A stretch of 64,000 nucleotides of DNA from Oikopleura dioica (lineage: Eukaryota; Animalia; Chordata): contig OU015566.1 in NCBI GenBank assembly GCA_907165135.1, positions 1,860,001 to 1,924,000 on the forward strand, in the 5' to 3' direction. Under the pieces are notes generated by a model. The model saw only the letters and a list, made by a program, of their open reading frames with translations. It was not told the origin of the DNA and did not search any database. The position numbers and the translations under genes are program-made. Below are positions 6,820 through 64,000 of the stretch, one piece after another; positions within the stretch are counted from its first letter, which is position 1, and every line of letters begins with the position of its first letter.

Positions 6820-7027
6820 TTTGAAAATAAAATAAGGGTATCACTACGTTATTTTTCAAAAAAAAATAAGGGAATTACAACGATATTTTCGAAAATAAAA
6901 TAAGGGTATCACTTCGTTATTTTTAAAAATAATATAAGGGTATCACTACGTAAGTTTTGAAAATATAATTATGGTATCACGACGTTATTTTTGAAAATAA
7001 AATAAGGGTGTCACTACGTTATTTTTT
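6820..7027 (+). repeat. 34-bp tandem repeat (~6 units) with the AAGGGTATCAC core
   Basis: The core recurs at 6833, 6867, 6901, 6935, 6969 and 7003. Confidence 0.85.
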
Positions 7028-44100: not shown

Positions 44101-44139
44101 TTCATAGTGGACTTCTTCTTCTTCGTCATCCATAATCAT
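32128..44139 (-). CDS. SZT2: SZT2, KICSTOR complex scaffold (multi-exon, >3000 aa)
   Basis: N-terminal EEAFVLVQDTARISRDSRAKW; YRFVFLFDLSSS; MLRTGILALQLLPSNSIAGICIITDG...CSFVQV...FGLVPNAHLMKFIS; LISCHLREGF; C-terminal CYKDHLWKL...LSDLKELL...RHLAVFN. All align with remembered SZT2 segments. Confidence 0.92.
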
Positions 44140-44477
44140 ATTTCATTTCTTCTTTTTCAGAAGATTCTTTTTTCTTTCTCAGGCTTTTTCTCGAATCTCG
44201 AAATTGGTTCGGACTGAAAAGTGGAGCGCGCGCCTTTCAGCGATTGGCCGAAAGATAATTAGGAGGAATTTTGAAAAGGAAAGAGAAATGGAAAAACGAT
44301 ATTTTGGAAGGAGAACTCATAATTGAAGAGAAAAACAGAAGGAGGTAAAGCTTTTTTTCTCATACATAAAAAAGAATATTTTTTATTAAGAAAAAGTAAA
44401 TTTAATATCTTGTTAATAATTTTTTTTTTTGCTTTATATTCACTTATAGTCAATTTTTAGACCAAACTCGGTCCGAA

Positions 44478-45071
44478 ATGCCGTCTCTTCGTTACGCTCT
44501 TGAACCTCCCCCAAGGCCGGACCCATATTCAGACGATGACGACGATGAGCCCACACCTCAGCTGCGAATCTTCCACAACTACGATGCTAGAAGACGCGCT
44601 TGCGCTGATGGCGCTGGGCCGAGTCATGCTTACGTCCCTCCTCCCGAAACGCCCTTTTCTTCGGAATCTGAAGGCGAAGATGAAGAGTTAAAAGCTGCTC
44701 CTATAGCTGCAATGCGAAAACGTAAATTTTCTAGCGACGAGGAAGGGATGAACCAACGGCCAACGAAACAGATACGGGATTATTTGTCCAGCAGCTCCGA
44801 TGAAGATGAACTTTCAATGTCTCCAATCGCAGCCAAGCGTAAACGAAGCGATTCAACTGACGAAGAAGATCTCCCTCCTCCAAAATCATCAAGAGAAGAG
44901 ATGCTCAGCTCAAGCGATGATGATGTTCCTCTAGGAGAGTTGTGTAGGAAAGAGAATAGCCCGCTTCATCGAGATTCCGCGAATTCGGAAGTCGATCAAG
45001 CTGAGTTTCAGCCGATTCATTCGGACTTAATCAAGGTAAGAAAATATAAATTGAAAGCGAAAACTTCCTAG
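44478..45071 (+). CDS. Acidic/basic nuclear-type orphan protein (first exon; downstream exons unresolved)
   Basis: 197-codon ORF with repeated S-S-D/E-E-D tracts and KRK motifs, an AG acceptor just before the ATG and a donor at 45036. It could belong to the host or to the element. Confidence 0.5.
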   Translation: MPSLRYALEPPPRPDPYSDDDDDEPTPQLRIFHNYDARRRACADGAGPSHAYVPPPETPFSSESEGEDEELKAAPIAAMRKRKFSSDEEGMNQRPTKQIRDYLSSSSDEDELSMSPIAAKRKRSDSTDEEDLPPPKSSREEMLSSSDDDVPLGELCRKENSPLHRDSANSEVDQAEFQPIHSDLIKVRKYKLKAKTS

Positions 45072-45359
45072 ACTAGGAATCCCGGATACCCTCCTTTCGT
45101 CAGGAAATCCTCCATTCGTCAGGAAACTTGCAGATTTTCCTGGCGAATGGAGGATGTTCTAGAAACTCGTCTTCTGATGATTTTCCCTTGATTTATCAAT
45201 TTATTATTCTTTCTAAAAAAGGGTTAGGGTTGAGTAAATTCCCAATTATATGTTAAAAAAACTGATTTCTATCCAAAATTACTATAAAAAGAACGAATTT
45301 GTCACCTAAATTCGCAATTTTAATAGTCAATCTCCTGTAGGAAAACATGAGTAGTTATA

Positions 45360-45632
45360 GTAGTGACTGACCATTTGATAATTTTTCTGTGTGTTGATTG
45401 GGTGCGAGCGATGTAGCACTGAACCGGAAGGCTCACGGCTCAGTGCGGGGGGAAGGCCCCTCAGGGCCTTCTTGACACTCATCAGACTCCAAATGAAAGC
45501 ATTTTACGCCACCACCAAGGTGCTGCACCACTTGCATTACATGCATGGCACCAACACACACTATAGGGCGGCGTGATTTTTTTCTCCACTCCACACAGCG
45601 ATTTTTTACTTGTTCAAATGGTCAGTCACTAC
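45360..45632. mobile_element. 273-bp MITE with ~19-bp TIRs and probable TA target duplication
   Basis: TA|GTAGTGACTGACCATTTGA ... TCAAATGGTCAGTCACTAC|TA, with several internal hairpins. Confidence 0.7.
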
Positions 45633-46781
45633 TATTTTCGCCTATTTAAAAATAAAAATTATTTTAAACGCACTACCCCACTATTCTAACGCTACTGAAC
45701 CCGCCTATCTTTTTACATTACTCGTAACTTAACTCTAACCCTTAGAACTAAACCCTTCAACAAAGTAATTTCGCTAACTCGGGCCCCTCTGCACCAATTC
45801 TCTTCGCCCGCTCGACCCAGCGCTCCAATACCAACGCGCCAATTGCCGCGCGGATCCACGCCCATGGATTAGCCCCGCCATTGTCCCGCATCGATCCGCC
45901 TTCTCGCTTACTCATCGGGCTCTAGAAGCTTCGGCACGTTCTACTCATTCTCGAACTTTCTATTCATTGATCCATTCAGGCTCTCTCCACCAGCTCAGCC
46001 GCCGCCTCCGCCGCCCAGCTGCTCCAGCGCCCCGATCACTCTCACTGCCACTGATTATCACGACCCTCGCGCATGATCGCCCAGCTCAATCTTTTCAGGT
46101 TAGAATCTCCGTATATTATGAAAAACGGGGTTGAAAAAGGAGTAGATCAATTCATTTATTCAGGCATTACGGTGCTATGGTTGTGAAACGGTGAGGGTAC
46201 AGTTCTTCATCGCTATAAATTGGTGGCAGGTTTGTGATGACAATGAAGACAATCGCAGCGAAAGTAGCAGACATCATTACGCAAAAGCAGCAACCAAGAA
46301 TGATGCTTTCAAGGATTACCTGGATAAAATTGGTCGCCATTTTGCTTGTATTTGTTTGTAAGTTTTCAAAGTTTTTGAATTTTTATGCTCGAATGAAAAA
46401 TTCTGCGCGTTAAATGTCTTTCTCCAGGTGAGTTCCAACTGGCCTACGTCTGGAATTTATGCAATCAGCCGCCCCTTATCGCCCTGGACATTCTTATCAT
46501 AGATTTCTTCAGGTACACCGCTGGGACTAGCCACACTCGCTTTCAGTAAAGTCACACCGCCGCTGCACGATCGCTCTGCGTTATCTACTTCTTACTACCT
46601 CTCAGAAACCGTAATACTTTTTCAAGTCTGATTTAACCTATCAATAAATAATCCCTTCTTTATTTGAATAAATGTAGCTCAAGAAAAATTATTAGCGTAA
46701 TGATATTGAGTGTGTTTATGAAATGATTCTTTATTCTTGAGTAAAAATTCTAAAAAAGACATTTTGTTTTTCTTTTTTTAT

Positions 46782-46928
46782 TTATAATCCAGAAGTAATA
46801 ATCTTTGCAAAAAACAAGTTGAACTGAACAAGTGCAGAGCAGGCGTAAAACAAGATCGCAAAAGCAGTAACAATGGCGAACAGGTAGAAAAGAGCGAAGA
46901 GGACGAGAGCGAAGATAAGAAGATCCAT
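46782..46928 (-). CDS. 48-aa hydrophobic membrane micropeptide
   Basis: MDLLIFALVLFALFYLFAIVTAFAILFYACSALVQFNLFFAKIITSGL*. TATAAAA at 47015-47009 and AATAAA overlapping or following the stop. It is below the ORF-track cutoff. Confidence 0.55.
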   Translation of the reverse strand: MDLLIFALVLFALFYLFAIVTAFAILFYACSALVQFNLFFAKIITSGL

Positions 46929-47004
46929 TTTTCGTTCTTGTTTTCGTTGAAGTTTTTGAAAAATTTGATTTTTTGGTTTTTATGAAGTTTGAGAACTCGG
47001 ACAT

Positions 47005-47330
47005 GCCTTTTTATACGCGCAGATGTTACGGAAGTGATAGTATCAGCTGTTTATGGTTCGATCTAGAATCTAAATTAGTTTGGGCAAATTGACTATCAAT
47101 TTGTGTATCTCCAATTTTCCAGCTGGGGAAACATCAGAGCAATTCGCACCTTATTTATCAATGAAGATCAAGTGCGCACCTTGTACTTGAGAAAGCAACT
47201 GATCTACCGGATATTATTATTGTTTTTATCTTGCGTTTCATCTTTTTAGGGGTACTTTTTGGCGACTTTTTCGGTACTTCTAAGAGAACTAGTTGGCGCA
47301 CCTAGTTCAAGGTTCAGTATAAAACCAGAA
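47005..47330. promoter_or_regulatory. Divergent TATA promoter pair
   Basis: TATAAAA on - (47015-47009) and on + (47318-47324). Between them are repeated (G)CGCACCT and GATA-like motifs. Confidence 0.5.
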
Positions 47331-47361
47331 CTTTTTTTCAGCAGGTATCAAACAATTCAAA

Positions 47362-47715
47362 ATGATTGTACCAATTGAACAAATTAAACCCAAGAAGAAG
47401 AGCGTTACCAAAAAGATGGCCAATTTTTTCAAGCGGCAGTTTACTACTTACCAGTACCCAGTCAAAGAGATCAACCAGAAAATTTTGTGGATCGACACAA
47501 ATACAAACACTAACCTTGGCGCCATGACCAAGGCTTCCGTCAGCTCCGTTCTCCATTGTCCTCCGCCGCCATACCCGAAATCTGTTGGATTAGCCCCTCT
47601 CACCACCAAAGAAGAGCCGCCGATGCACTCCCATTTTTCGGATGAAACGCTGAAATATGCGACGATCCGTCGCTCGTACTCCGTTCGCTACCGAAACGCC
47701 TCACGCTTCTATTGA
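47362..47715 (+). CDS. 117-aa orphan protein with a PPPPY motif
   Basis: ATG 38 nt after TATA, intronless ORF, AATAAA near 47792. Confidence 0.6.
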   Translation: MIVPIEQIKPKKKSVTKKMANFFKRQFTTYQYPVKEINQKILWIDTNTNTNLGAMTKASVSSVLHCPPPPYPKSVGLAPLTTKEEPPMHSHFSDETLKYATIRRSYSVRYRNASRFY

Positions 47716-48026
47716 AACTTTTCACTTCCATTGCACCTCTATTTATGATAATTTCTTTCTTACTACCATTCTTACGCTCTAAATTTTCTAAAATAAAAAA
47801 TATAAGGACAAAATCTCATCTTGTTGTATTTATTATCAGCGGTTTAAAAGCATCTCTGTTTGAACCGGTAAAGTGGACTCAGATGATTTATCAGAAATTG
47901 TTTTCATTTTTCAATTTTTTTATTTTCTCAAGTAGCATTTTATAATCCTTATTCTCGTTTCAGCCCTCTTTTTCAGTTTGTTTATTTGCGCTCAGATGCG
48001 AATGATAAATGAGTTCTATTTAAAGT

Positions 48027-48289
48027 TTATTGTTCCATATAAATTGAGCTAGAAGTAGCGTTGTTAATAAAGAAATCCATGTCTTCAATCTCTTCGTCTG
48101 ATGTTTCGTTCAAATGCCAGTGAATATGAAAGCGGCTAAGGCGTCTGGCTAAATCCTCAAAAACAGAATCTTCTATTATGGGAATATTAAAGGCATGCGA
48201 CAAACTTTGTCCCTGCCCGAGTTTAAACTCTCCTTTACGGTCTAAGCAATAAATAATAAAATTAGAAAAAACCTCTTACCTCTTTTCAT
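48027..48289 (-). CDS. 74-aa spliced orphan protein
   Basis: TATAAAA at 48334-48328, ATG AAA AGA G|gtaaga...ttag|AC CGT in-frame phase-1 intron, acidic C-terminus, AATAAA at the stop. Confidence 0.6.
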
Positions 48290-49378
48290 GTTTTTGTTGT
48301 TCTGATAGAATCATTAGAATCGCTCGCTTTTATAACATACTACTGTATTTATTCAAATTTTACGAATCTTAGCAAATCAGGTTTTTTCACGCTTCATTTT
48401 ATTACAGTATTTATTCAATATTGATCGCAAGAGAATTACTAAGTGAAGACATGGAGGAAGTTCTTGGTTGGAAAATTTTAGTTTCATTTTTGATTGATTT
48501 ATATTTGTTAACTTCATCATTGCCAATAGGAAAGAAATACTTGCTTTTATGCACCATTTTACGTTAGTTATTTGAAAAGTCAAGGAGGAAACTGGTGTTT
48601 GGAATTTCGTTCCATTTTATAAAGGTTTAAAGAAATCATCGAGAAGATTATTTGGTAGTGAAAGCATTTTATCACTTTTCAAAATACATATCCGCGAGAA
48701 AATATTTGACGCTAGAATTTATGGTTCATTTTATATTTTTCATAATATTCTTCATTTAGTTGCTTCTGAGGTGGCTGAACATGCTTGTCGTTTTGTAGTC
48801 ACTAAAAAAATCATTTTGATTTGAGCTCTATTTTTACCTGACCATTTTAAAATTCTCATCTTTATTAAAAACGTAACTCAACGATGTTTTTATTTTAATT
48901 TTACATTGGCGCTCGTGAAGCCGCTAAATGGTGCTGTTCGAGGAGCTCTCTCTTCAACTATCGATTTAAAAATGAAGTTTTTTTAGAATAACGTGACAAT
49001 TCGATCATGTCTTCGAAAAAACACGAGAATTTTGCTCCTCAACTCGAATCACTATCTTTGGGGTGGGCAAGTTTGCCCTTGTGGAATATTCTAGCGGAAG
49101 CAGGTACGTCGAGTGTTCAATTACTTTCAAGCATTCCCCATGTTCAGTATCATTTTTAAAAAGCTATATTACTGGACATAAGCGAATGTATGACATAATC
49201 TTGCCGGATGTGAAACTTGACAAGAAACCCCAACCCTTGCCTATATTGAGTCAGAGCAGCGTCAATTAAGGCAACGTGGAGTTTTTGTCATTTTCTTAAC
49301 ATATATACCGATTATCTGGGGCTTTAGTGCGAGTGAGAATATAAAGACGCTCTTGATCAGGCGCACTTTTCTCATTCG

Positions 49379-50352
49379 ATGAGGGCGCAATTTTTCCGCG
49401 CTGATGTTTTCAATTTATACGGCGATTTTCGTGGCAATACTCACTTTATGCATTACTCGCTTAATAATAGCAAATTTAATTTGCTATCCTTCAGCGAGTT
49501 CTTTTTAGGCAAGCGCGGGGAATTGAAACAGTTTGACGACTTTTCGGCGGCTGATTCTGCTCTTCAAAATGAACAAGGTTTATTCTCGGTTAGTTTTTCG
49601 GTTATTTATTTTAAGCCATCTTTGACGCTCTTTCGCACGAATTGGACCTCTCCTGTGCACGTCTTTTGCTTCTCATTGAGCAATTTTACTCTTCAAATGC
49701 TGCAATAGGGGACGTTTTGATGTGTTCAGATGGAGCCCATCGTAAGCGCAAGTTAGTCGACGATGACACTCCCACGCGTCCGCAATCAACAATGAGTTCT
49801 AGCTCCCAGTCAGCGTCTTCATTATCACTAGATCGTCCCATTCTCAATGATAAGGTAGATGGTATTTCTGGAGCTTTCGAAGATTTGAAGATGGCGAATG
49901 ACAAAGAAAAGCCCGAAGCGAACAGTTCTCGACAGACCTTTGAATACCACAACATGGTAAAAACACTCAAAGCCAATAATCCTGTCGGAACTGCTTCTGC
50001 GAAAGTATTATACGTTTTATGTAAAACCGAAGCCGAGTACAAGGTGAAATGTGGAATCCCTCTCAAAACGCAAGATATCCTCGATTGTAAGCGCGCTGCT
50101 GCATTCGCCGGAAAGGATGGTGCGATTTTTGATGAACTGTTTCGGAAGAGTTATTTGCAGGAGTGCAGGGAGCGAGCAAGAGGATCTACTTCATCACCGG
50201 CTGGAAATGACGACGGCACTGAACATGACTATGAAATCTACGCGAGAAGTCTTCCGATCAACCCTCTTTCTTTTATCGGGCAAGCAATTGCCGACCAAAT
50301 GAAAAAGTTGGAAGAAGATGAAAATGCAAAGAAGGATCAGTCATCAGAATGA
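49379..50352 (+). CDS. Spliced orphan (~310 aa) with a possible BEN-like C-terminal helical domain
   Basis: TATAAAG at 49340, ATG 49379, and a 38-nt intron 49578-49615 that joins to the 49642-50352 ORF. RKRK NLS. Confidence 0.55.
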
Positions 50353-51087
50353 AGATAATGAAAGTTAAATTTTGGTTAAATTATTAGCCAAAGCATAAAG
50401 TCTACTGATTTCTACAATTTTTTTTGTTTTTTGCTTTTTTAACGCATTTTATTCATTTCATCTACAAGTTATTTTTTGTTTTTCGGTTGCTTTTTAATAG
50501 TGAACTAATTGGTGCTTTTTAAATTGAACTTTCTGACGCACAGCGTGATTTCATTTTGGATCTCCTCTTTGATTACAGGGTAAATATTAATTGAGAACAA
50601 TGTCTAGCCTGTAATCGTATCAATGTTTTGCGCCTTTTCAAAAGTGATAAATGTATCTAATCTACTCTACAATTAAATAACATTTCAAAACAGCCATGTG
50701 TGATAAGAAAATTAGGAATATCTAGATGTTTTTCTCCTTCAGTAATTGTAAGTTATAAAAACTTTCGCCAACGACAAGATCAGCTCCGACCTATCATTTA
50801 GGCCGCCAAGAAAACCTCATTTTTTGTTTTGTTGAAGTATGAATAGTTACTGTTATTCGGATCAGCTCAAACTCTTTCTACTTCAGCTTTTATTTTTTAC
50901 TGCTTTATTAATACAACATCTGCCATAAAATCTCTAGTGTTTCTAGCGTTTCTTTGCAAAATGTCGCAAAATGTTTCTAGATGCAATGTTTATCTCAGGC
51001 GTTTCTATAAAAGCAGCAGTAAGTCGAGCTTCCGTTCAGTTTTGTATTTGACAGCAGTAAAACAAGACAATTTTCTAATCTTGCGCG

Positions 51088-51956
51088 ATGGGACGGAAAA
51101 AGGTACGATTTGTAAGAGATGTTATTGCTTAAAAATATTACAGCAAGCGCAGCAAAAACGCAGCAGCCGCAGAACCGAGACCGTGCGTCAAAAAACACCA
51201 CCAAAGCCTTATCGAGGCCTTCCACCTGCGTCTCCTCCACTCTCACCCCGAGAGTACTTGGAAGTGCACAGCCTCGATCCCCTCGACTCTCTTTTCGTTG
51301 TTAACGAAACCGTCGCTGCTAACGAATCAGCGCTTGAGGACACCATCGTCGGTGGCGAGAACCTTGTACCGATTGAAGCTACTGAACCAACAAGAGCGCA
51401 TCGTCAGCTTGTCTTCGATTCTGATGAGAGCTCCGACGGTGACGAGCACGACCGTGCTTTTATTGAAGAGCCCGCCTTTGGTCCAAGGCGCGCCAAGCAT
51501 TGCATTACCTACCGTGGCTTAATTAGAAAAGTGGGCCCAAATAATCCAGCGGAAGTAATTCGGTACTTGGGTGAAAATGGGGACAAAGGGCGATGGTTTT
51601 TCCGGCCGGTTTATGGTCGTTTTTGCAAAACCTCTCACGGGTTCTTGCGTTTTAACGAAGAACGTAAGTGTTTATTTTTTTACTTTATTTAAAATAAAAA
51701 TTAAGTCTACGAGGGCACTGGCGATGATCTCGAACGAATCTTGAAGATTCTGGACAAGATCTTCAGAAATCGCACGACTGAAATGGCGGAGTTTGAGGAG
51801 GAGCTAAATCGAGGGGAGATTGGAGTGGTTCTTGAAACAAAAACGCATCTTCTCCCCCTGAAAAACATTCAGTTCGGGATTGCAAGCCTCAAGAAAACCG
51901 ATCCGGATCGACGGGCAGAGCACGATGAAGCTCCAGCGTATGCGTCCGAGCCTTGA
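51088..51956 (+). CDS. Three-exon orphan with a basic N-terminus, Pro/Ser-rich and acidic regions
   Basis: TATAAAA at 51006, MGRKK|QAQQ via intron 51103-51143, and a second intron 51664-51705 that joins to the 51741-51956 ORF in frame. Confidence 0.65.
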
Positions 51957-52436
51957 AAAGGCTTTTTTCAAGTTTATTTGAAAACTCCAGCTGTCAAATA
52001 AAAACTTATTTTATATTCATTATCTTATTCTTTGATTAAAATCTAGTTGCAGTTTAAAAAATGCGCCTTGAATGTGAGTCTCGAATTATTCGTAAATGCG
52101 ATCAATCTAGAAAAGAGTTTGCGCATTAGCAGAAGCGCGGCGCGTTTAGTCGGCGAGCGGCGAAAATCATTTCCAGAAGTGAGATTTGTCATTTCGAGAA
52201 TTTGATTTTGAAAAATGTGGAGGTTTTGTTCTCACATGGGAAAATCACCGTTATCAAATCAGCGCGGAGAAGAAAATTGTGAATAAGAGAAGGAAGTAAA
52301 ATCGAAGAGAATTTTCTTTTACTGGCGATTATCAAAGTTAATTTTTCTCAAGCGAATTCATACATCTGATAAATTCACCGGCTTACGTTAATGATAACCA
52401 TCCCTTTTTTACAGAACAGTTGGCGTTAGAGAGTTA

Positions 52437-53681
52437 ATGTTTGTGTACGATGGCCCCAACCCAGGAACTCCGCGTGCGTCTCAAGCTCTCCCGCCAGCAA
52501 ACTCGAGTCGAACATCGAGTCTACGTCTTTCCCCGACTCCGAGTACCAGGACGATCGACGATTTCACGTTTGTCAAGCCCAGTATTCCGCTTCGGTAGGT
52601 TAAATTGAGAGATATTTTGTGCATAAATAACAAATATTTTAGTACGATGCAAGCTGCGCAAACAAACGAGCATCAAGCTCAAGATGAAGCTCATTCGCGA
52701 GCAGTAGGCGAGCCAACTGTTCACGGGTACGAGACAACGAGCTTCGTCAACCCTCATCCTCCCACTTCTATGCCAGAGCCTGTCGGTGCTGGGCGTTATC
52801 AGGCGCCGACTCCGCTATCTATGCCCCAAGACGCGTCCGATCTTCGATCTCTTCCTCGGCCAAAACGCAAACGGGTAATACATTTTTATAAAAAAGTTTA
52901 TTAAAATTTTTATAAGGTTAACACCTGCGGCGGAGCGGCCAGGTTTGATCTTCCGTGTCTTGTTACCTCGATGGTCGCAAGCGGTCTTTGCGCTGTCGCC
53001 GTCTACGTTCTCTTTGCGTCGACTCAGCAATGTTTGCCGACTTTTGGCAACGAGGTGAAGTCGATCGCCCCCTTAAATCAGGTTACTCGTCGTCGTCGAT
53101 CGCTCTCGAACGAGGACTGCTTCTGCTCCTGCACCTTCGATCCGCGCGATAAGGGCTGGTCCATCTCGTTGGAAACGCCCAACAACCGCCCAACATGCGA
53201 CGTTGAGAGTTACACCGTCTCCGTCAACGGCAAGAAGGTGACCAATGCAGCTGATCTTGAGTTGGACCTTGCTCGCGATTTGCTCGATCTTCTCACTGCG
53301 GTCCTTCTCAACGACAACGACAACGAGGGTTCCAAAGGCGGCGACAGTGAAGGCGGCAGTGCCACCACTTCGACCAAGATGACTACTTCTACGCCGCCGG
53401 AGACAGGAACGCGACCGCCAACTACTCTTTTCTCCGACGTCGACGGAAACAACGAGGTCCCTGACTTGTTCGTCAACCCTGGTATATATTCAAGTTCTTT
53501 CATAATTTAATCATATAAATAGAAGTGACCATCATCGAGCCGTTCGGAGAGATGGACATTGGAAGTGGCGAGGACATCTGGGGCTCCGTTCCGGAAGGTA
53601 AATTAGTTTTATTTGAACCGTTTTCTAATTACAATTGTAGTGGAGTACACTCTTCCCATCGACTTCGACGGCGAAATCTAA
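52437..53681 (+). CDS. Five-exon type II membrane glycoprotein with a furin site
   Basis: Four GT-AG introns join in frame. Cytoplasmic N-terminus ending RPKRKR, TM LVTSMVASGLCAVAVYVLFAS, RRRR/S, CFCSC...C domain, Thr-rich stalk, DIGSGED. Confidence 0.7.
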
Positions 53682-54027
53682 GTATTGACCCCGAATTCTT
53701 ATTATTGGTGTGTCTTGGCATTCGCAACTGTAATCAAATTTACGCTTCATAAAATTCTGCTCATCTGCTCTCATTGAAAACTTATCTGCATTCCCACCCC
53801 TTAAAAATCATTTAGCCGGACCTTCTTATCACTCGTTTATGCAATTATGATCTATTGTATTATTCACCTTCTAACCCACCCTTTTATCGACACTCACACA
53901 GTTCAGTAGTATTTGACTGTTCTGCCGCTTTGCACTTATTCGACCGACAATTTTTCCGACCTGTTCTTGTCAATGAAGCCTCTTTACATTTTATTTGTTC
54001 GTTTTCTTTTATTGCAACACTTTAGCA

Positions 54028-56655
54028 ATGGGCAAGAAAAAAGTTATTTCGCGACCGTTAACTCCAATTCCATCTTGGCTCAAGAGTCAATTGAAAAATG
54101 CGCCCATCAAGGATGTAGTCAAATCTGCTGCAAATCAGAGTGCAAGGTAAATAATTGAAAAGCAAATATTCATTTGCTAATTTATTTGCTTAGGGCGCTT
54201 TTCACTAAAGCAGAGAAGGCCGCTAGCGGCGCGCCTTTTGCAACACTGCCACGGCCGCGATTGCCCGCTATCTTCGAAACCCGAGGTACTTTTAATCAAA
54301 GGGATTAAATTTAATGGATTTAGCTGGAAAGCGAAAGCGAATTTCTTCCCCGCGTTACTCTCCAGGCGCTGTTCGATTGTCTCCCGAACTTGTATCAATC
54401 GACAGTGCAAAAGTTCTTCCGACCAAGCAGGAGGCGGTTCTGATACACAGAGCTCCAGACGGGTCGATTCTGATTCCTCAGGAATTCACAAAAGTGCTGA
54501 TCGATTTCATCAACACTCTTCAGAGCGGTAATTTAGTTTTGTCCTGCATTTAGCTTAATTAGTTTTTAGAGTACGAGTGGGCGAATCCTCGTTAGGGAAC
54601 ATGCGCTTAAAACCTGGATTTTACGAGCAAATATTGGAATTTGCTGTGTACAGAGAGTGTTTTCAGCGTCGTGGTCTTTTTGGTTTAAGAAATTATATGG
54701 ACTTCAGCTTACCCGATCAACCTCTGCATTTTTCAGCTTCTCCGTATATTGACGGACAGTGGAGAGATACGCTTCTACTTGCCGCAAAAGGGAGAGACTG
54801 GCAAAATATTAAAAACAGAATACTAAACAATCCGCCTCCTGTTATTCTTCCATTCGAAAAAACTTCCCTTATTTCTACGTTGGCGAAGCAGACTGTTGAT
54901 TCTTTTCAAACTTTGGAAAATCGAGTTTTACCTACTCTTGGAAATGATAAAAACGCTCAGATATACACAAGTTTTCCTGAAAACGCTCCACTACTTCTTG
55001 CCGGAGATTTTGCGCCGAATCCTCGTATATGCAAACCAAATCCTGAAAAGTTTGACGCAGATTTTATTTCAATCGACAGTTTGCTAGGCGATGTGAATTT
55101 TTCGAGTCCCTCAGGGGCTCTTGCGACCTTAGAATTTATGTACGGAATCCTCGACATTGAATACAGAGTAGTTAAAGATACTCAAACAGGCGTTTCATCT
55201 ACCAGGCTGATTTCCAGAGCATTCCGACAGATAAATCCCGACATCTCAGAAGTTATTTATCGAAACCGTTTCGCTTGCGATCCGAAACAATTTAATGAAG
55301 AAGAATTTGTACTAAACAACTTTGATGACGAAGTTGATGTTACAATGGAGATGACAACCCTGCTCGGAGCTTTTTCTAGCGAAAGCTATAATTTTTCTAA
55401 GAAATTTCTAGCTGATGCGGCCTCTCTATCAAAAAAACAGCAAAACGGCAATTCGTCTTTTTCAGAACCAACTGAAACTACTCAATTCTCCAACAACGAC
55501 GCCGACGATGAGCTCAATCAATCTCGCAAAAGTGAGCGAATACGCAATAAGAAGATTAATGCAACCTCTAAAAGTGATGAATACGAGGAATACGAATATC
55601 TAACGACTCCCCTGGAGAACAGAGTGTATACCTTTGACGAGTGCAACTTCAATCTGTGTAGCAAGTTTTTTAATCAAACGGATCTTTTCAAATATTTGAC
55701 GCTCCTTGGAAAAACTGTCTATTATATGGCACCCTACTATAAACACTGCCCACTTCTCCTGGCCAATGACGCTGCAAGTCGCGACTTGGAGAAGAAAATT
55801 CCTAAAGCGCTGTTAGCTGACTGGCGAATTGGTAAAGTCTCTAAAAAAGTTGGTCGATCAATGGATAATTCTTCAAACTTTGCGGCGTCATTTGGATCAC
55901 AAATTTGTGAAGGAAATGTCAGCCTGCTCAAAAGTAAGCTGTTCAATCAAGATGTCTATAGAGTTTTTCTTCTGAAAAATCAAACTGACAACAGTGCTCT
56001 ACATCTGCTGCTTTCTATCAAGAAGTATTTCAACGATTTTGTGCAAGAGCTTTTTTTGCAGGCGCAGCAAGCAATTCTGTTTTCGTCGAAGGAAGTTGAC
56101 GAATTATCCACATGGAAGCGAGGTTCAGCGGAGACTCTTCAACAAAAAAGAAATCGTTTTCGATTGATGAGGCTTCATTTGCGCTCAAGAAAACAACTTC
56201 TCCTTCATCAAAAGCGCCAGATTAAAAGCTTGTTAACGAAGCTTCGGCTTCTTTATGTTGACTTTTGCACCAACTGCCCGTCTCAACTTGACAAAAACTT
56301 CCCGATCAAAATTAAATGCTCATTTGAAGATCAGCAGTTTCTTCAGACGTCGTTTATCAACTCATTTCAACGAAGTCAAATCGAAAATGCTGTATTTACC
56401 TGCGACCGTTGTTCAAGTCGTCTGAACAATTCATTTTATCGGATCAGGCTCTTTCGGCATTTTGAATATGACTTGCCCAGCATTTATCTACAACGAAAAC
56501 AGAGGCAAATGGCGGAAGTCATCAATTTCATGGAGATCACTTATAATATGTGTCCCGACGCATTTCTTATTTTCGGTATTGATCGCTCCAATGTTTACAG
56601 CAAAAAAGGTAATAAATTGATTTTACGAAGAGATTATACTTACTTATTATTCTAA
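54028..56655 (+). CDS. Large spliced orphan (~820+ aa) with two C-terminal CxxC motifs
   Basis: MGKKK... exons joined by introns 54147-54193 and 54286-54323, then to the 692-aa ORF through a non-canonical or tandem junction near 54525-54571. CTNC and CDRC motifs. It may extend 3' by splicing from the donor at 56609. Confidence 0.65.
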
Positions 56656-56820
56656 GCAGATAAAAATCCGGACGACTTACAAGCCACTCAAGAAGAAGAA
56701 AATACAGTCGTCGCCACCACAAACGTTTTTATCGTAAGAGCGAGCACCATCTAGCTTTCTAACTTATAAATAAGCTCCCCGAAAGCGACATTCGTCCACA
56801 GAATCGAGAGCGATCGCAAT

Positions 56821-57534
56821 ATGAGCACTCAGGTAATTCTTTTTATCAGCGTTAGTTAATAGATCATTAAAGCGCGCGCCGGATCAACAGGAAAAAACCT
56901 ACAACAATTCTCCCGAGTTGACAACAACGTTTCAGGACGAACTATTGTCAACAAGCTCGGAAGAACCTCGAACTCCAAGTCCGATTCAATTTCCGCCCAT
57001 AGAGTCGCTGATCTCAAGAAAGCCTATGGAGACTCAAACCGACCAAGTAGTTCCCGATCTGGAGAGAAACTTCAATCAATATCCAGGCCACACTCCGGGC
57101 ACGGTCATCCATACGGTAGGCCCCTGCACCGTGAACTATCATACAACGCCAGCAATCAATCAGAATCAAACCTGTTGGGGCCAACTGCCACCGCTAGCAT
57201 CAACTGCTCAATGGGCGCCGGAAGTAGTTCCAACTATTTGGCAACCGCCCCAGAACCTCCCGCCAGACGAGTTACAACAGACGACCTCATTACTTATCTG
57301 CGAGAAGTCGCGACTCCGACTGAGTCGATCGGGGCATCTATTGCAAATAGAGCCTCTGCGCAATTGTTGCCAGCACTCGTCGGCGAATCCACTGGTTTTC
57401 AGGAGCTCCGCGCTTCTTCCTCAACAGGAACGTCTACCTCGCACCGAACAATCGTCTCCTGCACGACCGACGAGTCCAGCACCGATTGCTCAAGCAACCG
57501 CCTCCAAGACCAATCCAAGACGCGTACACTTTGA
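56821..57534 (+). CDS. Ser/Thr-rich ORF (frame A of the dual-coding region)
   Basis: ATG AGC ACT CAG|gt 30-nt intron ag|ATC ATT..., open 56863-57534. Confidence 0.4.
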
Positions 57535-57580
57535 GGAGCCCTGCAAGAAGAAATACAAAAAGGACACCGAAAAACGCTAA
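56918..57580 (+). CDS. Pro/Gln-rich ORF with TQT, RVxF and basic NLS motifs (frame C of the dual-coding region)
   Basis: Open 56837-57580 with first ATG at 57026 (METQTD). RRVHFEE and KKKYKK near the C-terminus. Confidence 0.5.
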   Translation: MTTTFQDELLSTSSEEPRTPSPIQFPPIESLISRKPMETQTDQVVPDLERNFNQYPGHTPGTVIHTVGPCTVNYHTTPAINQNQTCWGQLPPLASTAQWAPEVVPTIWQPPQNLPPDELQQTTSLLICEKSRLRLSRSGHLLQIEPLRNCCQHSSANPLVFRSSALLPQQERLPRTEQSSPARPTSPAPIAQATASKTNPRRVHFEEPCKKKYKKDTEKR

Positions 57581-57775
57581 AAGGTAGTTTCTAAAAGTTT
57601 AAAAATTTATTAATAAATATTTCAGCTTTTCCTCCCCCAGCCTCCAACGACACACCGATTCCCGAGCTACGAAAATTAATGTCTTTTTCTTTCAATGTTA
57701 CTTGTTTTTCCTTGTTCTCCTCCTGCAATTTTTCAAATAAATGTCATTTTTTGAAAATCGTTTTTTAATTGTTCT

Positions 57776-58831
57776 TTATTTAAAAAGCCAGGCAGTAGGA
57801 TATTGTTTAATAACTATTTGAAAGGCTAGTAATCGATGAACTCTAACATTACTCTCAGTAAAGACGTCTCGACTATGATAAGTGTTTGTAAGTAACTGGG
57901 CTCCAAAATCTTTTGGGTTAAGTTCTGCACAAAGATCGTCAAGATCTTTTTGATTTCGAATAAACTCAGTTATCGTTACTGACCCCCAACCGTTCGGATA
58001 CGCTATCTGAGTTTGCGTTTGTATTTCTGGTTCGCCCGTTTCATAATTATAAACGGTAGCTGTTGACTTAGTGCTATAAAAAGCATCTACGCTAATTCTT
58101 AATAATCCCGAAAATACGTTTACTAAATCACGAACAAGTTGAACAACATCGCGATTATTTAAGACAGTAATAACGTATCTATTGCAGAGGTCTTTCCATC
58201 GCCCCATGTTGTCTGCGCCAGGCTGAAGCGGATAATGTTGCCACCCCTGTTCTAAACGTATTAAAAGAAAATTTAAAAACTGGCAACTAACTGATAAGAT
58301 GTCGGATAGGCGCGCGTAAAGGTTGATCTTTTCCTATGAGAGCGTCGAGTTCTTCTGGTTCAAAGTAATCGTCAGCTGGGGTGATAGGTGGAACAAGTCG
58401 TCGCAACTGATTCTGCTCATGAATTACGTTTGGTGCAAGGGCCTCTTCTGTAAAATTGAAATTTTCTTGCGTTTTTGATTTAGGGTAGAACCATTCTATC
58501 CTGGGCTCGCGAACCTGAATAGAAAACCCGAGTCAGGCTCTACGAGACTTTTCATATTAAACTTTTCAAAGCCTGACTTAGGTTTTCTACTCAGGTTCGT
58601 GAGCCCAAATTCTATCTGTTCAGGCGTTAATGTGTATTCGGGCTGTTGAGCTTTAAAAGCCGCCATAAAATCTTCCATCGGTTCGCCTGAACGAGGTGGA
58701 TTGTTTTCCATGCCAGCATAGTAACGACGTTTATGTTTTCGTATTTGAGCCGCTGTTGCAAATACATCTTCAACATAATTTTCAGCATCGTTTATCTCAC
58801 CAGTTTCAACGTTTAAACTATCGGTATCCAT
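57776..58831 (-). CDS. Three-exon orphan immediately downstream of the polymerase
   Basis: The 58496-58831 ORF, a middle exon (EALAPNV...RHLI) and the 57776-58207 ORF join through phase-1 introns (second intron gttagt...tttag). The ATG is 55 nt after the pol stop. Confidence 0.6.
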
Positions 58832-58886
58832 TCTTAATATTTTAATACATCAATTTTTTAGCCAGTGTGATAATTAAAATTTATAT

Positions 58887-61800
58887 CTAATAATATGTTC
58901 CATCAGCTTTTTTTAAGGCATAAGTGCGAATCTTATCCTTATCTACGATGCGCTTTTTGAGAGCGCCGTTAATCACTCGTTTTGACAGTACTTTTGTTTT
59001 AATTTGCTTGTTAACTTGGTCGTACATAAAAAGAGGCATATTTTTAATAACACTATCTTCGCTGTTGTCGGAAAAAAGCGCCGCAAGATAATCCAAATAT
59101 CGAAGTTTGATTTTTTTCGCGCAACCTTTTGCTGATCGTTTGACATTTTTTTCATTCAAAAAGGAGCGATTATGCTCCTCCAAAACTTCAAACACTCGAT
59201 GACGGTTTTCTGGAGCGACGATGGCTTCATCTATTCTATTGGGTTCACATTCGGTCATTATGTAACATTTAGCGCTGAGCGCTATAAACCATCCACTGTA
59301 TATTTCCGCTTCAACCTTTAAAAGCCCTGGTTCTTTCTGAGACGCTGGACAGCTTGTGGCAAACCACTTCGGCTTTATTATTGTTTCCCATTCATCCTTC
59401 AAGCAAACTTTAACACACTCGTCCAACGTTTTCGCGCCCAATGCAAGTACAAATGAGTCTGTGTCACAATAGCAAATTTGAACCATTCCTTCCTCCATGT
59501 ATTCATTTAGAACGTCTCGAAATTTAAAAAACAGTAGCTTACTGTTTTGATATACAAACAGCTGCACTTGAAGAGCCGTTGAATGATTTACCATTTTTTT
59601 GGAGAATATAGCCTCGTGGAGAGGATCGCATTTCGTCTTTTCTGCCTGGAGAGTAGAGAGTGATTTAAGCCGTGGATTGCGAAGCGCTGTATATAAATCG
59701 CCCGAAGATAATATTCGAGTTTTTAGAAATTTTGAGCGATTTATCGCAAAGTATCCAACCGCCGAATTCAAAATAAACTTAATCCAGTTTTGCCCCGCTT
59801 GGTCGCCCTTTGCCGCAGCTTTTACTCGATCTGCAACAAGATCGTTGACGAAATTTTCAAAAGGTTTGCCTCTGAAATAAGACACAAAATACTTGACTTT
59901 GTACTCGATCCCCATCTTCGCATAATAATGAAGCATTTGTGACGAAATAAAGTAATTATCAACATTAAAACAGAATATATTCTCCTCACATGGAAACATT
60001 CGTTTCTTCTGAGTATCCGAAAGAGTGTCATTCAAATCTCCTTGTAGATCCTCTCGTTCAATTCTTTTTCGAGCGAAGATAGGCGGCATGTACTTATATT
60101 TCTCAATCACTGACGGGGGCGAACGCAGATCAACCATTGCGAATCCAAAGAATTTACTTTCGCCGTTTTCATCTTCTTCTAACACCAATTTTTTGAATTC
60201 AGCTTCTGTAACTCCTTCTCGACCCGACGGTAATCCTGAGGGTTTTTTCGCTCCCTTGAATAAAAATGGATATGTTTTTGAAGATGGGCTTTTACCAGTA
60301 GACTCCAATATTTTCCATTCTCGTTTCCACTCGCAGGCCATTTTTATCGTTATACTGTGGGGAAAATTTTGAGGTCCCTCTGTTTCTTCCCATTCGTTCC
60401 CGTTCCAATGTTTCAGCGGTTTTCCCCAATCTTCAATTTTGTCCATTTTGCGAACATCGTCTATAATCTTCTGCATCCTCGCGTCTTCTTTTTTGAGTAA
60501 ACCGTCTTTGGTAAAAGGAACAAAAATTTTCGTACCGGTTGCAGGATCAATGAGTTCTTTTTTAGCCGCGCACGTCGGCTTTATTTTGCATAACTTATTG
60601 GTGCATGGATGAAAAGTACATCCCCGATATTCAAAAAAGTAACGTTTTTTAATGAATCGGAAAGGCTCTTTTTCTGCATCATTTGACCGAATTAAAATGC
60701 GCTCGTCCTCACTTTCCGCATAGCCATCAATATAATAATTGCCAATCTTTTTCTCTTCCAAATTGTAAGAATGTTCGATTGATCCGTTGAAAGAATAATC
60801 CGGCGACCAATTCAAATATTCCAGCCATCGAATAGACCCCAATGACGTATTCTGGCGTTGATGAAACATCCCTTTGCTAAAAAATCGCTTCTCATCGGCA
60901 TAACACATTGACGAAGAATAGCCCATTTTTTGTAAAGTGTACTTTATACCAGGCCCGCAAGGAAGATCTCCTCTAAAGGATTGAGGATACAAACTATTGA
61001 AATCGTAAGTTATAACCGCTTTAATTATTTTTCCAAGTAAAGTTTTCCAAGCAGATTCAGGAATCGCAGGATTAGGTCCATTCAAATATACCGCCCGATG
61101 AAGAACTTGAACAATGCCTCCTGTGAGATTTTTTCGCATGTCACGCAATAGTTCAGGAAAGTCAGGAGAAATCGAATATATTGGCGGACACTTTTTATCG
61201 TATTTCAAAAACGCAATTTTATGAGCAAGCTGAGAAATGCTCAATTCAGAATGAATGCCTAATCCAAAACGTCGTTGATTTGACAAGGCGAATGAAGAAA
61301 TAGATCCCTGTAGAAGAACACAATCGTTGTAATTGTAATCAATAAGGAAATCCATCATCGTGATTGGATTTTGATTTGAACTATCCTCTTCAAGAGCATA
61401 CCATCTTTCAACTGACGCTCTGTACATATTCGGCGAAAAACGGAAAAACGCGCGCGTAGCTTCGTCGTCCTCGTCCAAGTGCCAGCGGTTTTTCTCATCG
61501 CTCCAACAAAGAAACTTATCAATTTGAGTTGTCCACTTTACGTATAAATCAATCGTGTCGCGAATTTGGAATAAACTTTCACCTTGCGAAGCTTCATCAA
61601 CTGGCGGAAGGTTATCAAAATGTTCTTTTGCGACCGGATCTTCAAAAATATGTGTCAATTTTAAAAATCGGCAAACACGATTCGCAATTTCTTTTTTTTC
61701 ATTTTTCCATTTCCCATCTTGAATATTCGTTGCAATGATTTTATCCATTTCAATTACGTACTCATTTGTTGCTACCGACATCGTTGAATAGAAGCAGGGA

Positions 61801-64000
61801 TACGCAGGCAGTTCTTTCGCATTTCTTATATGGTCAAGTTTGTTGTACCATTCATAGCAAAATGAACCTTTTGCAAAAAGTTCCTCACTCAGACCGCAGG
61901 ATCGAGCAAGTTTATCCAGCGCCATCGGACAAGTGTAGTTTTTAAAATCTCGAAAAGTGAGATTAAGGGCTTCTAAAACCATGTATCCACTAGCTCGTTT
62001 AATAAAGCTAATTAGCTTTGTATTTCCACCAACGAAAAAGAATAAAACGGAGATAAGAGTCGGAAAAAGAACGACCATGTCGTATCTTTCTCCTACCCAA
62101 GAATAGATTTTCAACTTATAAAAATCCTTCAAATATTTGAGCTTTTTGCGATAAGCCGCCAGAAGAGAAGGATTACTTCCTTGTCCAGCTTCTTTCTTTT
62201 TGTTTTCATCTTCGATCAGCTTTTCATAATGTTGAACACCTTGAAATATACAACCAGGAATCAGACTCTCCATTTTCTTCTGAAGTATGAGAAGGTAATT
62301 GATAAATTCTGTAAGCATTATTAAAGATCCTTCGACTTCATCCGTTTTACGCACAAAGCACTCGCGTTCACCATTACTGGTGACAGTCGCCAATGTTGCT
62401 AATTTATGATATTTATCTCCAGTAGAAAAGCCATTGCAATTCATTGTGCACTCAATATCATAAACAACGAAGTATTCTTGCACATAATCAAATGCAGGCA
62501 AGAATTTTTCAGCAACTAGCTCGTGCACGTGATCCATGATTCGGTAAGATTCGACAGTCTGATGAATTATATCAATGGTGTCCATGTTACAGGTTGATTC
62601 GTGTTTTTTCATTTTACGCTTATCGGCATGGGTATACAGACAATTTGGCGTTTTACACTTTGGAAGTTCGACGACCATGCGATCAGGCAAAACTCGAACA
62701 AGAGTTTGATCATTGAAGACATTTGGTATTAGAGTAAGAACGTTTCGTATTGGCATGTATTCTGCGTAAAGCGACGATTCGACGCTATCGTGAGTGCTTT
62801 GCGCCCGTGGAATTGAGTCGTTGTTTTCATCTGAAGAATCACTTTCATGAGCAGGCTCTGGCAACAAATCGTCGGTATCGTAATTAAGCAAATCGTCATT
62901 TGTATGCAAGGAAGACGAAGTATCCTCGCCATTTTTCGATACTGCACATTGGTTATCAACAAATGGATTTCGCGCTTGACTCTTTTCTGAACTTGCATTT
63001 TCAGTCAATTTATCAAAATCAACAAAAGATAAATCGTCATCATTTGTTTCCATCGCAGCTGTTTCCATAGCAGTTGTACCTTCGAGTTCTTGCAAATCTT
63101 CCTCATCGCTTTGCAATACTTCTGTTGCATCGTGTAAGTTGTGTTTGTGATTTTTTGTCCAACGCAAAATTTGAGCTGTCTTCTTCTTACCCAGATATCT
63201 TGAACATTTACTGTAACGTCGTTGAAAATCTTTATTCGCGGCGTAAAGTGGTAGCAGACCAGGATAATTATCAAATTCCCTGTACGTTAGATTTGTAAGC
63301 CGTTTGAATTCGTTTGCAAACTCATCCTCTTGCATGGGCGCCGCTAGAATATTCATATTGATACAATCCGAATTCCCCATCGCTGCGTAAACGCACCGCT
63401 TCAAATTAACGTTGTCGTTTATAATTTTTCCAACAAAAAGGCGAATGTTGACTTTGTATTTGTTTCTTATTTTCTGGAAAATGCCATCTGCAATCGAAAA
63501 TTGTTTATCTGCGTAAGCTTCGCCAAACAGCTCCTTTTTTATCTCCGCAATTTTGACATTATACTCGCGTAGATGTAGTTTAGGCCACCGTACTTTTATC
63601 AACGCGTGCCAAATACTTACCCAGTTTTTATCTCGATCTTCAAAAGTACGCCTAGTTGGCAAAAGATGAAATGTTCCAAGACGCCAAAAATAAGGTCGCG
63701 CGCTTTGCAGAACAACGCAGGGTCGAGTTGACATTGGATTGACGGACTCTAATCTGCCAATAACTTGTTCAACATTTTCGCGGTCACCAACTCGATGAGG
63801 TCGATAACTAATACCAAGAGGGCGAAAATAGCCTCCATACAAAGCGTAAATATCAATGTCCAAGAAACGCTCTAACTTTGGTAAATCTGCTCTCGTCGGC
63901 GACAAACCAAACTTTTCCACTAGTTCGCTAGAATCCACTTTTGAAAGCTCTTCGCGCAGTTCTTGGTTTAATTTTGTAGGAATTTTCGGGTGTATTTTTT
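58887..64000 (-). CDS. Protein-primed family B DNA polymerase (Polinton/Maverick type), 5'-truncated by the window edge
   Basis: Exo I VVYDIEC, Exo II GERYD, Exo III YNYND; KNLTGG; motif A YDFNSLYP; motif B KFILNSAVG; motif C YCDTDS; PGLLKVE and SAKCY; inserted EKKIGNYYIDGY...FEYRGCTFHPC nuclease-like segment. The frame stays open to 64000 and has no introns. Confidence 0.93.
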   Translation of the reverse strand, partial: KIHPKIPTKLNQELREELSKVDSSELVEKFGLSPTRADLPKLERFLDIDIYALYGGYFRPLGISYRPHRVGDRENVEQVIGRLESVNPMSTRPCVVLQSARPYFWRLGTFHLLPTRRTFEDRDKNWVSIWHALIKVRWPKLHLREYNVKIAEIKKELFGEAYADKQFSIADGIFQKIRNKYKVNIRLFVGKIINDNVNLKRCVYAAMGNSDCINMNILAAPMQEDEFANEFKRLTNLTYREFDNYPGLLPLYAANKDFQRRYSKCSRYLGKKKTAQILRWTKNHKHNLHDATEVLQSDEEDLQELEGTTAMETAAMETNDDDLSFVDFDKLTENASSEKSQARNPFVDNQCAVSKNGEDTSSSLHTNDDLLNYDTDDLLPEPAHESDSSDENNDSIPRAQSTHDSVESSLYAEYMPIRNVLTLIPNVFNDQTLVRVLPDRMVVELPKCKTPNCLYTHADKRKMKKHESTCNMDTIDIIHQTVESYRIMDHVHELVAEKFLPAFDYVQEYFVVYDIECTMNCNGFSTGDKYHKLATLATVTSNGERECFVRKTDEVEGSLIMLTEFINYLLILQKKMESLIPGCIFQGVQHYEKLIEDENKKKEAGQGSNPSLLAAYRKKLKYLKDFYKLKIYSWVGERYDMVVLFPTLISVLFFFVGGNTKLISFIKRASGYMVLEALNLTFRDFKNYTCPMALDKLARSCGLSEELFAKGSFCYEWYNKLDHIRNAKELPAYPCFYSTMSVATNEYVIEMDKIIATNIQDGKWKNEKKEIANRVCRFLKLTHIFEDPVAKEHFDNLPPVDEASQGESLFQIRDTIDLYVKWTTQIDKFLCWSDEKNRWHLDEDDEATRAFFRFSPNMYRASVERWYALEEDSSNQNPITMMDFLIDYNYNDCVLLQGSISSFALSNQRRFGLGIHSELSISQLAHKIAFLKYDKKCPPIYSISPDFPELLRDMRKNLTGGIVQVLHRAVYLNGPNPAIPESAWKTLLGKIIKAVITYDFNSLYPQSFRGDLPCGPGIKYTLQKMGYSSSMCYADEKRFFSKGMFHQRQNTSLGSIRWLEYLNWSPDYSFNGSIEHSYNLEEKKIGNYYIDGYAESEDERILIRSNDAEKEPFRFIKKRYFFEYRGCTFHPCTNKLCKIKPTCAAKKELIDPATGTKIFVPFTKDGLLKKEDARMQKIIDDVRKMDKIEDWGKPLKHWNGNEWEETEGPQNFPHSITIKMACEWKREWKILESTGKSPSSKTYPFLFKGAKKPSGLPSGREGVTEAEFKKLVLEEDENGESKFFGFAMVDLRSPPSVIEKYKYMPPIFARKRIEREDLQGDLNDTLSDTQKKRMFPCEENIFCFNVDNYFISSQMLHYYAKMGIEYKVKYFVSYFRGKPFENFVNDLVADRVKAAAKGDQAGQNWIKFILNSAVGYFAINRSKFLKTRILSSGDLYTALRNPRLKSLSTLQAEKTKCDPLHEAIFSKKMVNHSTALQVQLFVYQNSKLLFFKFRDVLNEYMEEGMVQICYCDTDSFVLALGAKTLDECVKVCLKDEWETIIKPKWFATSCPASQKEPGLLKVEAEIYSGWFIALSAKCYIMTECEPNRIDEAIVAPENRHRVFEVLEEHNRSFLNEKNVKRSAKGCAKKIKLRYLDYLAALFSDNSEDSVIKNMPLFMYDQVNKQIKTKVLSKRVINGALKKRIVDKDKIRTYALKKADGTYY

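Follow-up and report, generated by a model that had tools for sequence, protein, structure and literature searches.

A Maverick/Polinton arm beside SZT2 in Oikopleura dioica, with a predicted stand-alone terminal-protein gene and about ten likely spliced accessory genes

Organization of the locus

The stretch of Oikopleura dioica DNA analysed here (contig OU015566.1, positions 1,860,001 to 1,924,000 of the forward strand; 64,000 nt, hereafter the window, in whose own numbering all coordinates are given) contains, beside the host gene SZT2, a block of element DNA that runs to its right edge. From left to right, the block comprises a terminal inverted repeat (TIR), about ten packed accessory genes, three short open reading frames (ORFs) on the minus strand and, reading in the same direction, the gene for a protein-primed DNA polymerase B (pPolB; pol). 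We read it as the left arm of a Maverick/Polinton, bounded by the TIR and a 6-bp target-site duplication (TSD), which is likely protein-primed by the product of its own terminal-protein (TP) gene downstream of pol and carries about ten likely spliced accessory genes; we give this reading a probability of about 0.75. The element ends, the target duplication and the intact frame of pol are direct observations, and the other parts of the reading are argued below.

Element boundaries and terminal repeat

Contigs from four sequencing runs were compared with positions 40100–59999; runs X1–X3 belong to one study, which may include the source of the window, and contig depth serves as a rough guide to copy number. 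The left end of the element is at 45350, where the sequence opens with AGTAGT and where loose ends of contigs from X1 and X2 start exactly. A TIR of ca. 720 bp (45350–46073) was delimited from the X1/X2 contig ends and depth: in X1, the depth was 299–435 over the outer 290 bp and 213 over 45606–46073, as against 108–114 for the substitution-free contigs that tile 46044–59109 and 85–122 for single flank alleles. Partial likeness to the other end may extend to ca. 46096 and near 46606–46660. The AG-type end motif and TIR of Polintons/Mavericks are therefore both present, as AGTAGT, as doubled depth to 46073 and as the other end found in X2.

This other end was recognised from a loose end in X2 that, when reverse-complemented, reads the six bases 45344–45349 and then 24 bases with 2 mismatches to the host continuation after 45349 seen in X2, X3 and X5. 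It is the opposite terminus of the element, with a 6-bp target duplication whose left copy is 45344–45349; this TSD, of the length proper to Polintons/Mavericks, comes from one contig of one run. Contigs from X2, X3 and X5 run from 45349 into the host continuation, and one X1 contig also exits at 45349; these could stem from an allele without the element or from further copies of the host repeat that lies there.

Within the TIR, a 22-bp perfect inverted repeat closes a structured loop (45357–45636). The predicted fold has −59.7 kcal/mol (z=−8.0), and none of 100 shuffled sequences was equally stable, so that this terminal stem-loop may be a candidate origin or integrase-binding structure.

The loose end of X1 at 45350 carries another flank on an identical TIR tip, which indicates a second insertion with the same tip. 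Among the contigs listed, those of X1 and X3 had 0 substitutions in the interior and those of X2 had 0–1, against up to 30/271 in the flank contigs; these near-zero values are signs of a recent insertion. The fourth run, X5, covers the host flank and yields only scattered short pieces over 46076–59999 (16 of 30 bins with depth), which suggests that the element is absent there; with such low cover this is no proof, and we do not count it as evidence. Two DNA and two RNA runs were also compared with 45322–58500, a stretch without a host control, and the RNA runs gave 2 reads (X11) and 0 reads (X8).

A sequence-only reading of this DNA had placed a Polinton-like virus arm at 44478–64000, with its terminal repeats and duplication yet to be found. 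Both are now located, and the stretch is indeed one Polinton/Maverick arm, although its start moves to 45350. ORF 44478–45071 and a host repeat at ca. 45083–45349 are not part of the element, because they lie outside the TIR and target duplication; contigs of all four runs cover the ORF. Its 197 codons, head to head with SZT2, encode an acidic, Ser-rich product with internal repeats and without a Pfam match, and a likely intron after 45036 leads into the repeat interrupted by the Maverick. The repeat is multi-copy, with a 19-bp tandem unit, and the Maverick is inserted at its right edge. SZT2 itself (E=7.5e-17 to KICSTOR SZT2) has its apparent start codon at ca. 44141. It is thus the neighbour, as had been claimed; the accessory arm, of ca. 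12.4 kb, begins ca. 1.2 kb from that codon.

The polymerase and its vOTU region

Gene pol (58887–63998, minus strand) was identified from its ORF, Pfam matches and motifs, and its 5′ end lies beyond the window. As far as the window edge its frame has 1703 open codons, or 1615 aa when counted from the first ATG. The product matches Pfam DNA_pol_B_2 (E=1e-12) and, among PHROGs, a DNA polymerase (E=1.3e-8), which bears out the original description of a complete-motif pPolB of more than 1700 codons and supplies the protein-primed PolB typical of Polintons/Mavericks. Exo I, II and III, a YxGG-type motif and motifs A, B and C are all present, together with a Vsr-like insert. The part of the protein encoded in the window comprises a degenerate vOTU-like region bearing an acidic insert, a Cys/His zinc-finger-like motif, the exonuclease and a palm that contains the Vsr-like insert; Pfam Vsr was matched weakly in 2 of 29 related pols. 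A sequence search of the PDB with pol was empty.

Thirteen homologs of pol were retrieved, five from O. dioica records and eight metagenome proteins of 40–51 % identity, and a cluster look-up added two further O. dioica records. The best, P0001 (PAR.g12375), is an O. dioica gene model 93 % identical to the window pol, and in one named O. dioica assembly there are five pol models, each at its own locus. The O. dioica and metagenome pols form the clade referred to below; the identity of the window pol to the retrieved pols outside it is 24–33 %.

In many distant pols the N-terminus consists of a conserved domain and then a protease-like domain with Cys and His, which is the TP (D1) and vOTU (D2) layout described in PMC11161782. 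In the N-terminus of the clade pols there are two partial vOTU-like matches, each with E ca. 0.02. By motif register, the catalytic Cys is missing in all of the 12 clade rows (of 13) in which the second vOTU helix was found and of the 7 (of 13) in which the first was found, and the catalytic His in all of the 9 (of 13) with a recognisable vOTU strand; both residues are kept in 11/11 outgroup pols, which were chosen for a clear vOTU domain. In the window copy, moreover, the domain is split by a 127-residue insert, 26 % of it acidic. Since the catalytic Cys and His appear to be lost, the protease is predicted to be dead.

A putative terminal-protein gene downstream of pol

Three ORFs lie behind pol (58496–58831, 58287–58532 and 57776–58333) and likely form one three-exon gene (57776–58831, minus strand), with predicted exons 58831–ca. 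58505, 58447–58292 and 58251–57776. Its second intron (58291–58252) is canonical and keeps the frame in an intron scan. Homologs of 40–48 % identity occur behind pol in the metagenome loci L001 and L002 and in the gene models P0010 and P0027: L001 and L002, the two loci that extend far enough, have the last exon at the corresponding position, and in the two gene models it is fused behind pol.

A profile of 16 D1 regions aligned end-to-end with this last exon over 112 columns (E=0.0018), with a score of 24.5 versus a best score of 19.5 among 30 shuffles. An AlphaFold2 model of the domain, built from five clade sequences only (pLDDT 74), has the order strand-helix-strand-strand-helix-strand, in agreement with the TP/D1 fold (PMC11161782), and an invariant Ser (residue 134 of 57776–58252) occupies the loop before the last strand, where that paper places the linking residue. 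Foldseek ranked an adintovirus C2H2-domain protein first and a 1064-aa densovirus-labelled protein second (both prob 1.00), a MELD-virus PolB fifth (prob 0.91) and a parvovirus-labelled fragment ninth (prob 0.84), and a search of solved structures returned generic alpha/beta folds only (best Z 5.6). The TP profile matched 0 of the 10 clade pols of the tree at E<1e-3, and found no match in full-length clade pols or in the upstream DNA of L001 and L002. These results suggest that the gene directly downstream of pol codes for a predicted stand-alone TP.

The sequence-only reading had counted 12–14 kb of packed orphan genes. Some ten converging genes over ca. 12.4 kb do answer to this, whereas ORFs 58496–58831 and 57776–58207, which relatives also have behind pol, are likely parts of a gene of the replication core, that of the TP. 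A separate TP and a dead vOTU would together be the adenovirus state, here predicted inside an integrating element.

Positions 58541–58607 of the first TP exon attract many unrelated contigs in all four runs and resemble a common host repeat. Eight metagenome pPolBs of 1100–1300 aa (P0032, P0038, P0047, P0052, P0054, P0056, P0120 and P0123) have an N-terminus without a match to the TP profile, and possibly make up a wider group of split-TP elements.

Core genes in relatives

A metagenome scan yielded 9 loci from 284 pattern matches, of which the longest, L001, is incomplete at 13.9 kb. Along it lie an ATPase gene (minus strand), an integrase gene, an ORF of 600 aa, pol and, behind pol, homologs of the window ORFs 58287–58532 and 57776–58333, i.e., of the TP gene. 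The ATPase matches Pox_A32 (E=8.5e-6, passing the cut-off), as an A32-like packaging ATPase. The integrase match to rve (E=2.3e-4) misses the cut-off; an rve integrase is also implied by the 6-bp TSD of the window element. The pol and integrase genes of L001 are interrupted by apparent short introns.

The 600-aa ORF, whose six homologs are all unnamed metagenome proteins, is 32 % identical (E=7e-50) to the N-terminal exons fused to pol in P0001, which places the same capsid-like gene upstream of pol in the closest named relative. With a structural model of the family, the 8 best of 48,161 solved chains were double-jelly-roll capsid or scaffold proteins (Z 4.3–6.6), the only BFVD match under E=0.001 was a virophage major capsid protein (E=4.5e-4), and an ESM Atlas search with the N-terminus of P0001 gave a weak capsid lead (score 0.80). 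To judge from these models, the ORF likely encodes a double-jelly-roll-like capsid protein.

The core genes upstream of pol in a relative span ca. 6.5 kb and the part of the element in the window 18.65 kb, so that the whole is likely at least 25 kb, and the earlier suggestion of an unusually large element is probably correct. No relative came out of scans of viral contigs, whether made with pol or with the alignments of pol and of the capsid, and three GTDB loci with distant, fragmented pols and an ATPase gave no match to the TP, the capsid or the clade N-terminus.

Loci L054–L056 are contigs of one record labelled as a bacterial metagenome-assembled genome and carry fragmented Polinton-type pols with an ATPase, suggesting eukaryotic DNA in the bin. 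Gene models P0001 (capsid-like gene and pol) and P0010 (pol and TP gene) fuse separate Maverick genes and are likely annotation artefacts.

Kinship of the polymerase

The window pol matched 43/43 non-clade polinton-type pols at E of 1e-24 or better; in phmmer searches against 7 mastadenovirus pols, only 3 of the 7 were reported at all, with E of 3.2 or worse. Over 314 columns, identity averages 26 % to other polinton-type pols and 19 % to adenoviruses, whose pols are 18 % identical to the remaining pols. The phylogeny proposed earlier shows the clade as distinct, on a long stem with full support in both trees, and does not settle between convergence and kinship with adenoviruses. In the more careful tree (33 of 50 rows, with mastadenovirus-type adenoviruses only and other polinton groups left out), a split with 95/94 support separates 17 rows, 15 of them TP-fused, from the clade, 8 other TP-less pols and the adenoviruses. 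A tree constrained to unite clade and adenoviruses was not rejected by the approximately unbiased test (p=0.70) and exceeded the quick free tree by 11.6 log units. Both results speak against a simple convergence with adenoviruses.

The accessory arm

The interval 46167–57700 is filled by about ten closely spaced ORFs or gene models with converging orientations; they belong to the element because they lie inside the TIR/TSD boundary. Nearest the TIR are two predicted single-pass membrane peptides on the minus strand: gene a (46167–46340; 57 aa, KD19 2.62, TATA-like box at 46387, polyA signal at 46160), which has no family, and gene b (46782–46928; 48 aa, KD19 2.88, TATA-like box at 46984), with no family at the cut-off and a leader built like that of gene a. 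They are followed by gene c (47362–47715, plus; 117 aa, TATA-like box at 47318, polyA signal at 47792), gene d (48027–48289, minus; two predicted exons with intron 48279–48242, ca. 74 aa), gene e (49379–50352, plus; two predicted exons with intron 49578–49615, ca. 310 aa), gene f (50961–51956, plus; at least two predicted exons with intron 51664–51705, TATA-like box at 50924) and gene g (52437–53752, plus; 4–5 predicted exons with frame-keeping introns 52595–52642, 52875–52916 and 53482–53522), all of them without a family. A weak candidate for a further small gene, d0 (48411–48557, minus; 48 aa, TATA-like box at 48621), came from reading the sequence. The product of gene g is likely a type II membrane protein (KD19 2.16), with a Cys-bearing ectodomain and a tetrabasic site of the furin type. 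Short matches to gene g in contigs from X1 and X3, and to gene e in one contig from X3, point to diverged copies of both.

Gene h (54028–56754, plus) has a 684-codon exon (54601–56655) and short predicted flanking exons. It was the one accessory gene, of about ten, with which a large protein collection was searched, and its sole homolog there is the O. dioica model PAR.g13028 (70 % identity over half of the exon); it has no Pfam, PHROG or PDB match. The ORFs of gene i (56821–57580, plus) are two overlapping long frames, 56837–57580 and 56863–57534, the second of which shares 38 % identity with the C-terminal part of PAR.g13028.

The Pfam cut-off was reached by none of 23 exons or ORFs, two further scans of 14 proteins each matched pol only, and comparison of the accessory genes with Pfam, PHROGs and PDB sequences gave nothing meaningful. 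The proposed adenovirus-like "early" host-manipulation region is accordingly no more than a guess, as no accessory gene has a functional match; the adenovirus-like feature is predicted to lie instead in the replication module.

Several accessory genes have AT-rich GT-AG gaps of 38–48 nt that join frames, in agreement with the intron size of the host (median 49 nt; PMC8008620). The intron scan, whose listing covers the region outside ca. 54000–56600, was permissive and gives many chance candidates, without a shuffle control. From these sequence features, the accessory genes are likely spliced.

Double open frames over the same DNA at 56837–57580 and 54181–54553 possibly reflect overprinting or alternative splicing. 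T-rich AG acceptor-like sites at ca. 52415 and ca. 54025 are situated just 5′ of the ATGs of genes g and h, with no TATA nearby, and possibly serve host-style trans-splicing.

A model for the element and alternative explanations

An rve integrase encoded on the arm beyond the window would have joined the element ends to host DNA. After excision, replication of the linear DNA could be primed at the AGTAGT ends via a nucleotide linked to the Ser of the separate TP; without a TP-pol polyprotein, the vOTU protease would lack a substrate and might have decayed to a domain with a structural role or one in docking. Packaging of the DNA would rely on an ATPase and a double-jelly-roll capsid, both on the arm beyond the window. 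The accessory genes would most likely be fast-evolving element genes adapted to the short-intron splicing of the host, and the three predicted membrane proteins may act at host membranes.

Several results weigh against this model. HHalign gives the D1-profile match a probability of 15 %, the TP hidden Markov model alone is not significant on the last-exon ORF (E=0.66), and an ESM Atlas search with the TP domain returned nothing usable. The Foldseek TM-scores are 0.31–0.41, and ranks 1, 2 and 9 are taken as pPolB N-termini from their names and lengths, not from the matched ranges. As pol extends beyond the window, a spliced upstream TP exon is possible for this copy. The vOTU homology is marginal (score 21.6 versus 18.3 in shuffles) and motifs served to set the registers of its residues. 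For this copy, integrase, ATPase and capsid are deduced from relatives only, the model of the capsid is weak (pLDDT 50, Z below 8), and no protease or penton was found among the 13 ORFs scanned in the incomplete 13.9 kb of L001. All introns are sequence predictions.

That this is an ordinary Maverick whose 12-kb arm is captured, intron-bearing host cargo seems unlikely to us. Nematode Mavericks do have such cargo beside the TIR (10.1101/2022.07.12.499685), the predicted introns fit the host size (PMC8008620) and in L001 and L002 the ORFs that converge on the TP gene are unlike the window genes; but the core genes of relatives (pol and integrase of L001) also appear intron-interrupted, so that introns are no marker of cargo here. 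Gene h has a single homolog, a gene model of O. dioica whose genomic context is not visible, yet it is just 70 % identical and the gene h search brought up no second host-like copy. No accessory gene matches a family, and the overlapping double frames and dense packing of TATA and polyA signals look viral. We give next to no credence to the more radical proposal that only pol derives from an element and the orphan genes are host genes. It is true of one ORF, 44478–45071, which is outside the element and in all four runs; all the others are between the TIR and pol, where X1 contigs of one depth tile 46044–59109, and the boundary, with its target duplication at 45344–45349, largely refutes it.

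The gene behind pol might also be a conserved element gene of other function, with the TP encoded elsewhere, e.g., in upstream exons of pol. The absence of TP-profile matches in the full-length clade pols and upstream DNA of L001 and L002 argues against this, as do the order of strands and helices, the position of the invariant Ser and the ranking by Foldseek, all in agreement with TP/D1. Taken against the weak profile statistics, the generic alpha/beta matches among solved structures and a downstream position not expected from a simple gene split, they leave this alternative improbable. Rather less probable still is that the O. dioica elements and the wider marine TP-less pols are integrating viruses from the adenovirus stem, in which the TP would have become detached, the vOTU died and a large spliced accessory region been gained while the integrase was still kept. 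The adenovirus-side placement in the tree is likelier due to long-branch attraction, because a very long branch leads to the adenoviruses and the sampling lacks other polinton groups, and the adenovirus-like state of the Maverick is probably convergent.

Comparison with known systems

Vertebrate Mavericks have an AGTAGT end motif, TIRs of 46–1447 bp, lengths of 12.7–24.6 kb and intronless core genes (PMC8097293). The O. dioica element shares the end motif, a TIR length within that range, the 6-bp TSD and a pPolB, as well as integrase, ATPase and capsid in its relatives and accessory regions flanking the core; it differs in its likely size of at least 25 kb, the 12-kb accessory arm, the predicted introns and the predicted separate TP. 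Nematode Mavericks (10.1101/2022.07.12.499685) likewise have intron-bearing extra genes by the TIR, one membrane protein among them, although their cargo amounts to 2–5 kb of identifiable host families, as against 12 kb without a match here, and they carry a fusogen where gene g is a putative membrane protein only. Marine nematodes and molluscs have VSR-containing pPolB2 Polintons (PMC10748475) whose palm, by the published description, likewise bears a Vsr-like endonuclease insert. Adintoviruses are defined by a hexon recognisable by BLASTp to adintovirus references and an integrase with a C-terminal chromodomain (PMC11071296); no chromo match was found in the two integrase ORFs of L001.

The Stylophora pistillata polinton StCAV is also an integrating element with the TP on its own gene, but its vOTU is described as catalytically active (PMC11161782), whereas here the residues appear lost and the TP gene is downstream of pol. 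Adenoviridae combine a stand-alone TP with an N-terminal extension and a pol with an inactivated vOTU (PMC11161782), both of which are predicted here; unlike them, the window pol has no significant mastadenovirus likeness and carries a Vsr-like insert, and the element is integrated with a TSD. The adenovirus-type polymerase and non-integrating genome of that family are thus both lacking. Adenoviruses have been proposed to derive from polintons in which the TP split off pol and the vOTU protease then decayed (PMC11161782). In the O. dioica element, which is integrating and comes from a culturable chordate, the two steps both appear to have been completed and the frames are intact, which makes this model testable, as convergence or as kinship; the one split polinton named in the accessible text of that paper keeps an active protease, and its supplements may list more split-TP elements.

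With its roughly ten unstudied genes, the element is also of interest as a DNA virus-like element that has apparently taken on the very short introns of its host. Earlier work on the genome and transposons of O. dioica (Denoeud 2010, Naville 2019) may describe these elements. As the sequence-only reading supposed, the lineage may well be undescribed: the literature searched has no description of an O. dioica Maverick lineage beyond a figure legend in which "maverick" is a repeat class of the genome annotation (PMC5240408).

Other features of the window

Elsewhere in the window, 20117–21156 is a near-perfect tandem array of ca. 19 copies of a 55–56-bp unit. Inverted-repeat elements resembling miniature inverted-repeat transposable elements occur at 9704–10251 and 5269–5604, and 34-bp tandem units related to them at 6815–7026. 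Thr-rich coding repeats at 11192–11442, 18780–18979 and 22039–22208 (minus strand) suggest a mucin-like host gene.

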